This document shows positions 4,338-33,901 of a stretch of DNA of 64,000 bases, piece after piece. Location of the stretch: the NCBI GenBank assembly GCA_049519355.1, contig JBEKQV010000001.1:150408-214407 (forward strand), read 5' to 3'. The translations under genes were made by a program, and so were the position numbers. Below the pieces are notes generated by a model. The model did no database searches. It was not told the DNA's origin and was given only the letters and a program-made list of their open reading frames with translations. Origin of the DNA: Candidatus Microgenomates bacterium. Lineage in GTDB: Bacteria; Patescibacteriota; Microgenomatia; UBA8517. Position 1 is the first letter of the stretch, and each line of letters starts with the position of its first letter.

Positions 4338-4342
4338 TTTAT

Positions 4343-4660
4343 ACTCTGGAAATTAGTAAGCCAGGTTCTGTTTCTCGATGATCATCCATCTACGCCCTCG
4401 GTCCTCGGGACTCGGGAAAGCGTCCTGATATCGTCCCATTCGGAGGTTGCAGCGGGGAGGATTGCCCCTTTTCACTCGTTTTCCCCAACCTTTAGGGTTA
4501 AGGACTCGACATAGTTTCTGTGGCTCTGTACTGGCCAAACCCAAGGTTACCCTTGAGCCTGTCTCCGGCTTACGCCGGACACCCTGCTTTCTGCTGCCTG
4601 GACTTTCCTCTACGCATGGGCAAGCCCACACGCAGCGATCATCCTTTCTCCAGAGTGAGG
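4343..4660 (-). ncRNA. rnpB: RNase P RNA (bacterial type A), about 318 nt
   Basis: Minus strand contains the P4 5' strand AGAGGAAAGTCCAGGC and the 3' strand ACAGAACCTGGCTTA, with CCAGG/CCTGG covariation relative to E. coli CCGGG/CCCGG. P1 pairs ACTCTGGA with TCCAGAGT and P2 pairs GGATGATC with GATCATC. A P3 hairpin GCGTGTGGGCTTGCCCATGCG is present. The overlapping ORFs 4329..4514, 4353..4631 and 4447..4710 are spurious. Confidence 0.9.
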
Positions 4661-32202: not shown

Positions 32203-32997
32203 TTATTCTTTGTTTGGTTCAGTCTTTTTCTCTTCTGCCTTAGGTGCTTCAGCTTTTGGCGCCTCGGCCTTAGGAGCTTCCGCCCCTGCCTCAGCCGTTT
32301 CACCGGCCGGTGCTACACCTTCGACTACCTGGGCCACAACTTCATGCTCAAGTTCTTTAAGACTTCCGGATTTAATTTTCTTAATAGTAATAAGACTTCC
32401 AACCGTTCCCGGAATTTGTCCGGAAATCTCAACCTCACCGCTATCTTTTATTGAAATCACATGAAGATTTTTGATAGTAGTTTGTTCCGATCCCATTCTC
32501 CCGGCCATTCTTTTTCCTCTATAGACCCTTCCCGGAGTTGTTGTCTGTCCGATGGAACCCGGAGCACGCTCACGGTCGGATTGCCCGTGGGTCCTTGGTC
32601 CTCCCATGAAGTGGTGTCTTTTAACTACACCCGCGAAACCTTTTCCTTTTGATACCCCGGAAACGGCAATAACATCTCCTGCATTAAAAATGTCGGAGGC
32701 TTTTATCTCGTCTCCGACCTTAAATTCCGGCTCACTTTCAACCCTGACTTCCTGCAAATATCTCGGAAAATTTTTATCTTTTGAGGTTGACTTAAGATGT
32801 CCCTGAAGCGGTTTTGAAGTGTTTTTAGCTTTTTTGGAGAGAAATCCAAGCTGAACTGCCCAGTATCCGTCGCTGTCCATTTTTTTAATTTGGGTCACGA
32901 CGCAGGGCCCCGCCGTAACTAACGTAACGGGAATCCTAAAGCCTTCGACGAACGTCTGGCTGTTAACTCCTTTTGAACCTAAGATGGTATTAATCAT
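32203..32997 (-). CDS. rplC: 50S ribosomal protein L3 with about 55-aa low-complexity C-terminal extension
   Basis: L3 core (...GKGFAGVVKRHHFMGGPRTHGQSDRERAPGSIG...). Tail AEAGAEAPKAEAPKAEAPKAEEKKTEPNKE. Confidence 0.95.
   Translation of the reverse strand: MINTILGSKGVNSQTFVEGFRIPVTLVTAGPCVVTQIKKMDSDGYWAVQLGFLSKKAKNTSKPLQGHLKSTSKDKNFPRYLQEVRVESEPEFKVGDEIKASDIFNAGDVIAVSGVSKGKGFAGVVKRHHFMGGPRTHGQSDRERAPGSIGQTTTPGRVYRGKRMAGRMGSEQTTIKNLHVISIKDSGEVEISGQIPGTVGSLITIKKIKSGSLKELEHEVVAQVVEGVAPAGETAEAGAEAPKAEAPKAEAPKAEEKKTEPNKE
32236..32295. repeat. Four imperfect 15-nt tandem repeats (GCCTTAGGWGCTTCM) encoding (AEAPK)n in the L3 tail
   Basis: Units gccttaggtgcttca / gcttttggcgcctcg / gccttaggagcttcc / gcccctgcctcagcc. 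Confidence 0.4.
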
Positions 32998-33037
32998 TTT
33001 GGTTTTGGAACCCCCGGACTTTACGTCCCGGAGCCAG

Positions 33038-33071
33038 TAAACAACAAAAAAGGCGCCTTCAAAGGGCGCCT
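33038..33071 (-). terminator. Intrinsic terminator/attenuator in the leader of rplC
   Basis: Minus strand reads AGGCGCC-CTTTGAA-GGCGCCT followed by TTTTTTGTTGTTT, about 40 nt upstream of the rplC ATG and downstream of the promoter at 33142..33170. Confidence 0.55.
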
Positions 33072-33141
33072 AGGGGAGGCAACCTTATGAAGATCAACCG
33101 TGGCTAGTAACTGACATAACCACTTGCATGTTACGAGGGGA

Positions 33142-33170
33142 ATTATAACAAATGAAATGAACTTGCGCAA
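33142..33170 (-). promoter_or_regulatory. Sigma-70 consensus-like promoter TTGCGC-17-TATAAT inside the rpsJ-rplC junction
   Basis: Minus strand reads TTGCGCaagttcatttcatttgtTATAAT, about 140 nt upstream of rplC. Confidence 0.55.
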
Positions 33171-33180
33171 GAAGTGGCCT

Positions 33181-33230
33181 ATAAAACAAGAAGGGCGCTC
33201 ACCTGAATTCAAAAAATCAGGCAAGCGCCC
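33181..33230 (-). terminator. Long GC hairpin plus U-rich tract downstream of the 75-aa ORF
   Basis: Minus strand reads GGGCGCTTGCCTGA-ttttttgaat-TCAGGTGAGCGCCC followed by TTCTTGTTTTAT. Confidence 0.45.
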
Positions 33231-33242
33231 ATCTCGTACTTT
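33231..33242. repeat. Inverted copy of the 12-mer AAAGTACGAGAT (core TATCTCGTA motif)
   Basis: Plus strand reads atctcgtacttt, which is the exact reverse complement of 33509..33520. Together the two copies flank the 75-aa ORF. Confidence 0.55.
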
Positions 33243-33260
33243 CTATTCTTTTTTTGGGTC

Positions 33261-33488
33261 TTAGGCCTCAACGGCGAGGGGTACGTCAAGAATCTTGGCG
33301 ACATCCTCGGCAACGAAATTGCCGTAGCCGTGGGGAACACGGTGCAAACCGACTGGGTTCTTTTTAACCCAAAAATCGGCTCTCAGCTGCCGGCCGTCAG
33401 GTAGAATCATACTGCATTTTTCGCAGGCGGCTGTATCAACCCAATAGGTTTTGCCTTCAAAAACAAACTTGATTTGTCGATTAGGCAT
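33261..33488 (-). CDS. Hypothetical protein (75 aa), higher GC, inserted between rpsJ and rplC
   Basis: GGAGG SD 6 nt upstream of ATG 33488. Product MPNRQIKFVFEGKTYWVDTAACEKCSMILPDGRQLRADFWVKKNPVGLHRVPHGYGNFVAEDVAKILDVPLAVEA. About 48% GC, with its own terminator. Confidence 0.5.
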   Translation of the reverse strand: MPNRQIKFVFEGKTYWVDTAACEKCSMILPDGRQLRADFWVKKNPVGLHRVPHGYGNFVAEDVAKILDVPLAVEA

Positions 33489-33508
33489 ACCGTCCTCCAC
33501 AAATTTAC

Positions 33509-33544
33509 AAAGTACGAGATACCCTCGTAAGGATTTACGAGATA
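33509..33544. repeat. Two direct copies of TATCTCGTA (minus-strand sense) plus an embedded 7-bp hairpin, upstream of the 75-aa ORF
   Basis: Plus strand aaagtacgagat (33509..33520), hairpin ctcgtaa-ggat-ttacgag (33524..33541), and a second tacgagata at 33536..33544. Confidence 0.5.
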
Positions 33545-33592
33545 ACTGGAAATATACGTCAAAAATGAAGGAAAAGCAAATTATGGGATAAC

Positions 33593-33901
33593 TTACATCT
33601 TTATTTCAATGGAGACTCCGGCCGGAAGGTCGAGGTTACCAAGGGAATCGACTGTACGGGGGCTCGGGTCCAAAATATCTATCAGTCTTTTATGCACCAA
33701 AATTTCGTAGTGTTCTTGTGCATCCTTATCTGTAAATGGAGATTCCTTGATGGCCATCATCGTCCTGGCGGTGGGAAGCGGAATGGGTCCGATTATTTTC
33801 GCACCAGTAGCTAAAGCGGTATCTACTATCTTTGCTGCCGCTTCGTCCAGAACTCTATGATCGTAACTTTTGAGTTTTACTCTAAGTCTTGAGCTTGCCA
33901 T
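33593..33901 (-). CDS. rpsJ: 30S ribosomal protein S10
   Basis: [40 protein letters not shown]. Confidence 0.95.

Follow-up and report, generated by a model that had tools for sequence, protein, structure and literature searches.

In Escherichia coli the S10 operon encodes L3, L4, L23, L2, S19, L22, S3, L16, L29 and S17, and its leader, which sits before rpsJ, carries a Rho-independent terminator that has to be read through if the operon is to be expressed. Attenuation there depends on L4 and NusA, with L4 stabilising a paused complex. To our knowledge, this leader has neither an antiterminator nor a leader ORF. In the trpL, hisL and pheL attenuators a short leader ORF precedes alternative hairpins, and a ribosome at the stop codon favours the terminator; the trp leader shows super-attenuation when it is not translated. 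Mycobacteria have attenuators with leaderless short ORFs. Bacteria of the Candidate Phyla Radiation combine tiny genomes and unusual ribosomes with a small set of regulators, and we are aware of almost nothing about how their genes are regulated. [quoted passage not shown] Leaders in front of ribosomal-protein genes can vary considerably between lineages, as with the 'multiform' rpsL leader (PMC2965389) and the candidate Firmicutes S10 and Archaeoglobi L4 leaders, the motif of the latter lying upstream of rplC (PMC7247131).

This study focused on a 64-kb stretch of DNA from a Candidatus Microgenomates bacterium (the window; 64,000 nt), whose L3 protein shares 79–87% identity with L3 of Candidatus Woesebacteria metagenome-assembled genomes, marking it as a Woesebacteria-like member of the Patescibacteria. 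Immediately in front of rplC, the first gene of an L3-L4-L23-L2 block, it carries a promoter, a short leader and an intrinsic terminator (Table 1), a conserved candidate cis-acting switch that is found in more than 100 genomes across several candidate phyla and is absent from Rfam 15. Comparison and folding indicate that the leader very probably has the anatomy of a regulated attenuator rather than that of a plain terminator. As to what it responds to, the model that best fits the data, and which is put forward tentatively at somewhat less than an even chance, is a ribosome-dependent transcription attenuator of the rplC operon in which a short leader ORF acts as the sensor. No comparable rplC leader of Patescibacteria was found in the literature searched, and Patescibacteria terms are absent from PMC7247131. 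The switch offers a testable handle on how ribosome synthesis is balanced in Candidate Phyla Radiation bacteria, by a feedback that would be simple enough for a genome with few regulators.

Table 1. Features of the rplC leader and its surroundings, in window coordinates
Feature	Position	Strand	Details
rpsL, rpsG, fusA, tuf, rpsJ	tuf 35111-33918; rpsJ 33901-33593	minus	upstream of the element
79-codon ORF	33500-33261	minus	after rpsJ
Long hairpin GGGCGCTTGCCTGA...TCAGGTGAGCGCCC, then T-rich run TTCTTGTTTT	33183..33230	minus	-27.2 kcal/mol
-35 element TTGCGC	33165..33170	minus	TTGCG/TTGAC kept among relatives
Extended -10 TGtTATAAT	33142..33150	minus	TATAAT 33147-33142, TG 33150-33149
Predicted transcription start	33132..33135	minus	7-10 nt after the -10, inferred from promoter geometry
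Leader ORF MQVVMSVTSHG*	33094..33129	minus	11 sense codons + UGA (33096-33094); AUG 12 nt after the -10
P1 hairpin GUGGUUAUG..UACUAGCCAC	33100..33123	minus	inside the leader ORF
Antiterminator box UCUUCAUAAGG (segment 1)	33083..33093	minus	pairs with CCUUUGAAG at 33065-33057
Segment 2, UGCCU	33077..33081	minus	pairs with AGGCG (33071-33067) at the base of the terminator 5' arm
Intrinsic terminator AGGCGCC-CUUUGAA-GGCGCCU + U6GUUGUUU	33039..33071	minus	arms 33071-33065 and 33057-33051
Post-terminator structure	33002..33042	minus	outer helix GUUU:AAAC around a hairpin; 4 nt to the rplC AUG
Second hairpin CCGGGAC-GUAAA-GUCCGGG	33031-33013	minus	-12.8 kcal/mol with flanks
rplC (ribosomal protein L3)	32203..32997	minus	first gene of the block; no Shine-Dalgarno sequence
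rplD, rplW, rplB, rpsS, rplV, rpsC, rplP		minus	after rplC

The genes upstream of the element appear to belong to a different transcription unit. The long hairpin and T-rich run downstream of the orphan ORF, listed in part by the terminator scan, likely form the terminator of the rpsJ/orphan-ORF unit, in which case the rplC block is a separate unit and would need a promoter of its own. Across the phylum rpsJ and rplC are separated by anything between about 70 nt and more than 3000 nt, and in some genomes rpsJ lies elsewhere. A search for tRNA and tmRNA genes at the element found none. The preliminary description of this locus had reported a consensus promoter, TTGCGC-17-TATAAT. Both hexamers are present with the 17-nt spacer, but 'consensus' was an overstatement, as the -35 element agrees with TTGACA at only three of six positions, which is also why the generic promoter scan did not list it. 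The TG of the extended -10 was absent from that description. TTGCG is the -35 form that this lineage keeps. Among relatives in the window's own class (class A), 29 of 30 carry TTGCG or TTGAC, 17 nt and TATAAT, with differing spacer sequences, and this conservation of spacing is good comparative evidence that the promoter is real. The element marks a promoter and an operon boundary that have been overlooked by gene callers.

Comparisons were based on 160 loci taken from genomic and metagenomic collections because their L3 proteins are similar, and a further 12 from close L3 homologues. The members of a class are related by descent, so the counts given below are of non-independent events. All 23 close relatives have the promoter-leader-terminator unit directly upstream of rplC, about 100 other Microgenomates loci have variants of it, and about 112 loci of Patescibacteria carry a hairpin with a T-run immediately 5' of rplC; no terminator was found 5' of rplC in the Chloroflexi outgroup loci. 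The leaders fall into lineage-specific classes: a Woesebacteria-type, which includes the window, a Gottesmanbacteria-type, a Roizmanbacteria-type, at least two Levybacteria-types, and others. A covariance model of class A has a single match in the window (33034-33140, 82.7 bits), and all of its matches in the loci at E<=0.1 are upstream of rplC; members of other classes give weak matches at the corresponding site (E 0.1-0.6), and a few weak matches occur elsewhere in the loci (E 0.2-9). Loss of the hairpins in close relatives had been named as evidence that would count against the element, and what was found is the reverse: the unit is kept in 23 of 23, and the architecture of the second hairpin in 11 of 11.

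Within the unit, the terminator is the top-scoring one in the 12 kb scanned, its hairpin alone being worth -12.4 kcal/mol, and it stands between promoter and rplC just as originally described. The leader, then put at roughly 65 nt, measures about 63 nt if counted from the predicted start, and 70 nt if everything between the -10 and the terminator stem is included. Some relatives, such as locus L028, have the T-run right up against the rplC ATG, so that read-through is the only way in which rplC can be expressed there.

A promoter followed closely by a terminator is also the layout of a small RNA gene, and it could be argued that there is no regulated switch at all, the unit specifying a stable RNA of about 90 nt, or its terminator being constitutively leaky, with rplC expressed by read-through. 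The window gives a weak match to the suhB/mmgR sRNA family (RF00519; 18.4 bits, E = 0.39), and terminated attenuator RNAs of other bacteria, such as rnTrpL, can act in trans. The suhB/mmgR match falls well below the gathering score of 41, so membership of that family was rejected, and it arises from the terminator together with a C-rich stretch that is not conserved in relatives. Apart from the few weak matches (E>=0.2), the element always lies immediately 5' of rplC and in the same orientation, and in L028 its T-run touches the start codon of the gene. A plain terminator has no need of a co-varying antiterminator, and 134 control terminators lack one, whereas the rplC leaders have it. An sRNA gene or a leaky terminator is accordingly considered improbable.

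Each class has, upstream of the terminator, a box complementary to the inner part of the terminator's 5' arm, to its loop and to the beginning of its 3' arm. The sequences involved differ greatly: in the window CUUCA-U-AAGG is matched with CCUU-UGAAG, in locus L084 CUUCGAAGG with CCUGCGAGG, in L082 UUUGAGGG with CCUCUCAAA, in the Gottesmanbacteria-type CUCGGAUGAG with CUCAACCGAG, in the Roizmanbacteria-type C(C/A)GRAUUGG with CCAAUCUG, and in the Levybacteria-type CUACAUAG with CUAUGUAG. Segment 2 adds a further helix, in which four sequences show compensatory changes of CG to UA; alternatively, it can pair with the 3' half of the box to form a weak anti-antiterminator. A first, all-against-all duplex test suffered from noise, boxes and terminators being shared within a class, and tests using shuffles, control terminators and within-class permutations were used in its place. 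Across 98 non-redundant leaders, the complementarity between upstream sequence and terminator has a mean z of -1.89 relative to dinucleotide shuffles (p<=0.05 in 51%), while the 134 other terminators of the same DNA, serving as the control, have a mean z of 0.01 (Mann-Whitney p = 8e-21). For 23 leaders of the class, the cognate box-terminator duplexes sum to -356.6 kcal/mol compared to -306.2 +/- 10.2 for permuted pairs, and none of 50000 within-class permutations was as low. When 11 relatives were cut before the 3' arm and folded with RNAalifold, the consensus was P1 and a three-part antiterminator with compensatory changes; 97.2% of the antiterminator cells are paired and eight are changed on both sides, which none of 500 shuffles equalled, and slid controls were 33-71% paired. 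The check for covariation of the leader in relatives that had been proposed is thereby answered in favour of the element: an alternative pairing exists, and it co-varies with the terminator.

In the window, the two folds of the leader are predicted to be nearly balanced. The antiterminator is the minimum free energy structure (-28.8 kcal/mol) and the forced terminator state reaches -27.8, corresponding to probabilities of about 0.8 for the antiterminator and about 0.18 for the terminator. In step-wise folding, a hairpin that sequesters the box forms first and gives way to the antiterminator as soon as the terminator's 5' arm is present in the RNA; a 9-bp hairpin sequestering the box also appears in the forced-terminator fold. 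As there is no linker between the helices, antiterminator and terminator are unlikely to co-exist as a pseudoknot. With a conserved unit, a co-varying antiterminator and, in L028, a T-run at the ATG, the earlier proposal of a promoter followed by an attenuator serving the rplC-rplD-rplW-rplB block holds up well.

Between the promoter and the box lies the leader ORF, and its stop codon directly adjoins the box in the window; the next stop in the same frame, a UAA, is 9 nt into the box. An ORF of 7-13 codons with its stop 0-5 nt before the box is present in 22 of 23 leaders of the class, the gap being 0 nt in 14 of 22 relatives; L006 is the sole member that does not have the arrangement. The leader AUG lies 11-14 nt after the -10 in 22 of 23 members, 21 of 21 have the AUG 0, 3 or 6 nt away from P1, 20 of 21 have a P1 loop of 9, 12 or 15 nt, and indels within the leader ORF of close relatives are multiples of three. 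With all classes taken together, and the layout defined as an ATG that follows the -10 by 4-20 nt plus a stop between -20 and +10 nt relative to the box, 62 of 71 leaders with good promoters conform, compared to 6.7 expected from shuffles. One Levybacteria-type class has the stop inside the box (..ACA UAR), and compensating indels preserve the frame there (L149 compared to L045). A test for the longest open frame is uninformative, since the ORF is expected to end at the box, and the AU-rich linker that joins P1 to the box frequently has stops in two frames, which makes a chance stop near the box easier to come by. The stop precedes the box by 14-30 nt, too much for direct masking, in the MEV... 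subgroup, in the 'ATGCCCAA' class and in part of the Gottesmanbacteria-type class.

The predicted 5' UTR of the leader ORF is 4-7 nt, more than that of strictly leaderless mRNAs. Shine-Dalgarno sequences are rare and most genes in the window have none; among -10-like TAnAAT hexamers before 70 long ORFs, 16 of 21 occurrences lie 0-14 nt from the ATG, and tuf has a perfect TTGACA-18-TATAAT 10 nt from its ATG. With -10-like hexamers so close to ATGs and Shine-Dalgarno sequences so rare, the leader AUG, 12 nt behind its -10, has the look of a normal start of a gene in this genome. The encoded peptide itself does not appear to be under selection, since codon-position diversity in a Levybacteria-type class (0.28, 0.39 and 0.34) shows no third-position excess, and what resembles conservation of a peptide (VV, H) is accounted for by the stems of P1. 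No run of codons for a specific amino acid was found in leader peptides such as MQVVMSVTSHG and MIVVLNNISHDN, so the element would sense general translation rather than an amino acid.

Under the favoured model, transcription would start about 7-10 nt after TATAAT and the leader RNA would adopt one of two mutually exclusive folds. In the terminator state, AGGCGCC/GGCGCCU and the U-tract would halt RNA polymerase ahead of rplC, and in the antiterminator state, UCUUCAUAAGG-UUGCCU would pair with the 5' arm, the loop and the first bases of the 3' arm, giving read-through. The naked transcript slightly favours the antiterminator, so its default would be ON. The input would most likely come from translation of the leader ORF, which is near-leaderless and has 12 codons including the stop. 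A ribosome at the stop is expected to cover about 12 nt, that is, the entire box, which would allow the terminator to form and transcription of the operon to fall; if ribosomes were scarce or stalled, the box would be free and the operon read through. The outcome would be a negative feedback from translational capacity onto the supply of ribosomal proteins. P1, lying within the ORF, could be a pause hairpin that couples polymerase to ribosome. It could further be speculated, though with somewhat less confidence, that the main ribosomal-protein operon is governed throughout the Microgenomates by such a homeostat, free of protein factors, in which a mini-ORF reports ribosome loading. Ribosome supply would then set ribosomal-protein transcription without autogenous repressors of the L4 type, and the sensor would have been rebuilt with different sequences in each lineage. 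We know of few cases of a ribosomal-protein operon under ribosome-mediated attenuation without amino-acid-specific codons, and the rplC operon would be one of them should the leader ORF prove to be the sensor; this would also fit with the apparently widespread near-leaderless translation in Candidate Phyla Radiation bacteria.

The same switch could instead take its input from a ribosomal protein encoded by the operon, with L4 as the candidate and L3, L23, L2 or others as possibilities. By analogy with the L10 and L20 leaders of B. subtilis, free protein would bind P1 and the weak anti-antiterminator, block the box and so cause termination. The position of the element before the L3-L4-L23-L2 block would suit such a role, P1 is conserved as a hairpin and shows a compensatory change (GUGGU/ACCAC being swapped for GAGGU/ACCUC in some relatives), and the forced-terminator fold includes the 9-bp hairpin sequestering the box. 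There is precedent in the B. subtilis rplJL leader, with its similar switch logic and leader peptide (PMC4538822), and in the candidate L4 leader upstream of rplC in Archaeoglobi (PMC7247131). P1 may be either a pause hairpin or a protein-binding hairpin. The RNA-binding surfaces of ribosomal proteins are conserved, whereas the sensor sequences of the classes are unrelated (GUGGU/ACCAC, UUUUCC/GGAAAA, GAUAUGACG..., GGAGGU...), and L172 has an entirely different P1, CAUCC/GGAUG, but has kept the ORF, 4 nt separating its stop from the box. The anti-antiterminator, of 3-9 bp, is weak and shows little conservation. Consistent rRNA mimicry by the sensors was not found by blastn-short against E. coli 16S and 23S rRNA. 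Isolated 16S matches (the window ACAUGCAAGU with 53-62, the Roizmanbacteria-type CCGGAUUGG with 1300-1308, and a resemblance of the Gottesmanbacteria-type AGAUACUCUGGUA to 790-802) all fall in different regions and are treated as chance or unexplained. Lineage-divergent sensors and the lack of consistent mimicry argue against a conserved binding site for a ribosomal protein, and a protein input would leave the conserved AUG, the frame-preserving indels and the stop abutting the box unexplained. It is regarded as the main rival of the ribosome model, though less likely than that model.

An antiterminator/terminator expression platform is typical of riboswitches, and one could imagine P1 and the linker as an aptamer for a small molecule, such as a nucleotide alarmone, that controls the terminator. 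The P1 loop and the linker vary freely, a conserved junction or internal loop is absent, the sensor region is not conserved between classes, and there is no Rfam family beyond chance-level matches, even at E<=10. A metabolite riboswitch is therefore very improbable, and this reading, like those of an sRNA or a leaky terminator, is less likely than the ribosome and ribosomal-protein models. At the gathering score, Rfam 15 recognised no family in the window or in 20 representative loci, and at E<=10 the region 32900-33700 gave chance-level matches only (miRNA models on the upstream hairpin, and suhB/mmgR), with no leader family of ribosomal proteins, including L10 and L20.

The preliminary description had compared the element to the E. 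coli S10 leader controlled by L4, relocated to sit before rplC. The two share a leader terminator that must be read through, but the kinship was not borne out: the class-A model has no match in the E. coli S10 region (E<=10), the element lies after rpsJ with its own promoter rather than before it, and it includes an antiterminator and an ORF. The rpsJ-rplC gap of E. coli is 32 nt. Rfam has no say on kinship, as none of the Rfam 15 models matches the E. coli S10 leader. With the L10 (rplJL) and L20 leaders of B. subtilis the element has in common the mutually exclusive anti-antiterminator, antiterminator and terminator (PMC4538822), but its anti-antiterminator is weak where that of rplJL is large, and the stop abutting the box predicts that translation lowers read-through, where in rplJL it raises expression. 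Like ribosome-mediated attenuators, it has a short, frame-conserved ORF, the end of which abuts a segment of the alternative structure. It resembles trpL, hisL and pheL in the order of ORF and hairpins and in the expected effect of a ribosome at the stop, but differs in having no run of amino-acid codons and in preceding a ribosomal-protein operon, not a biosynthetic one; in addition, without translation the antiterminator is predicted to win here, as opposed to the super-attenuation of trp. The leaderless or near-leaderless start of the ORF recalls the mycobacterial attenuators. As in the rpsL, Firmicutes S10 and Archaeoglobi L4 leaders, sequence and structure vary by lineage while position and architecture are kept, but those leaders belong to other genes (rpsL, rpsJ) or to another domain, the Archaea. 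The element therefore works like known attenuators, but it falls outside the E. coli S10 type by position and homology, outside the Rfam leader families and outside the amino-acid-sensing attenuators.

Downstream of the terminator, a second hairpin had been described as overlapping a G-rich Shine-Dalgarno region before rplC. The hairpin is present and its position is conserved, but no conserved Shine-Dalgarno sequence is overlapped; the G-run was rejected as such, as it lies 13 nt from the ATG and is missing in most close relatives. In 11 of 11 close relatives a GUUU:AAAC helix encloses a hairpin of unrelated sequence, 4 nt before the AUG. The region from T-run to ATG has a folding z-score of -2.0 in the window, and post-terminator z-scores are between -1.9 and -4.2 in nine of 11 close relatives, those of L001 and L083 being positive. 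More distant class members have 6-36 nt between T-run and ATG. Judged by these folds, the second hairpin is a real structural element, specific to a subgroup and kept in position among close relatives. It may stabilise the 5' end of a processed mRNA, serve as a stand-by structure for translation, or be a translational operator. Several of the deposited L3 gene calls begin within the terminator.

The junction between rpsJ and rplC is a hotspot of insertion and rearrangement in Patescibacteria, as seen across the related rplC loci fetched by L3 similarity (L001–L174), where the distance between the two genes varies between about 70 nt and over 3000 nt, and where, in several Woesebacteria, a divergent GT87 glycosyltransferase gene takes the place of rpsJ ahead of rplC. 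In the window, the junction carries an ORF of 79 codons (75 from the ATG) that has no Pfam match, is missing from all 172 of the related loci compared, and, in a search of 5.8 billion proteins, has a single near-identical counterpart. This ORF is an orphan and possibly not a genuine gene.

Coordinates of features in the window
Feature	Position	Strand	Remarks
RNase P RNA, bacterial class A	4341–4654	minus	104.6 bits
Intrinsic terminator	4337–4314	minus	directly after RNase P RNA
rplC (L3)	32997–32203	minus
UGA and second in-frame stop	33096–33085	minus	likewise in L001, L083, L163 and L165
Hairpin and T-run	33230–33183	minus	-27 kcal/mol; downstream of the orphan ORF
Orphan ORF	33500–33261	minus	between rpsJ and rplC
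tuf promoter through tuf ATG	35151–35109	minus	perfect match, TTGACA-18-TATAAT

Because the leader precedes it, rplC is mis-annotated with 5' extensions in public gene calls. The deposited L3 calls of four relatives (L163, L165, L170 and L174) use TTG starts lying within the terminator or the leader, and that of L171 is likewise wrong, starting at an upstream ATG. At its other end, the L3 of the window differs from typical bacterial L3 in that its C-terminus is extended by about 55 aa of low-complexity sequence, with APKAE repeats and a tail rich in lysine and glutamate. The length of this extension varies among relatives (proteins of 238–299 aa).

Within the leader class of the window, some members (L084, L168 and L174) have a degraded U-tract behind an intact terminator hairpin (e.g., GCGCUUGAGUUGUUU), and the attenuator may have been weakened or lost in single lineages. 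In the subgroup with a leader ORF ending in UGA, the antiterminator box contains another stop codon in the same frame (UAA or UAG), 9 nt further on (UGA UCU UCA UAA). This codon may serve as a back-up, or its presence may be due to chance.

Leaders of the Gottesmanbacteria type (L018, L025, L030, L040, L053, L060 and others) share a strongly conserved stretch, GAGAUACUYUGGUAUACU, directly past the rpsJ stop. This may represent either a promoter (TTGAGT-17-TGgTATACT) or one side, the 5' strand, of a helix formed with CCAAAAGUCUC; if read as a helix, it has a co-varying extension of 7 bp in L120. The conserved stretch of this type also agrees with the 790 loop of 16S rRNA at 12 of 13 positions (AGAUACCCUGGUA). 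In leaders of the Roizmanbacteria type (L024, L027, L055, L069 and others), the antiterminator box CCGGAUUGG has the same sequence as nt 1300–1308 of E. coli 16S rRNA, at the helix 41/42 junction, and in L069 the agreement covers 14/14 positions. This identity to the E. coli rRNA is probably due to chance.

Elsewhere in the window, the tuf promoter ends 10 nt before the tuf ATG, so that transcripts starting from it would carry almost no leader. Upstream of long ORFs in the window, 16 of 21 TAnAAT hexamers lie 0–14 nt from the ATG, a clustering which suggests that leaderless or near-leaderless starts are common there. The RNase P RNA of the window is a divergent form, since its score barely exceeds the gathering score of 100.
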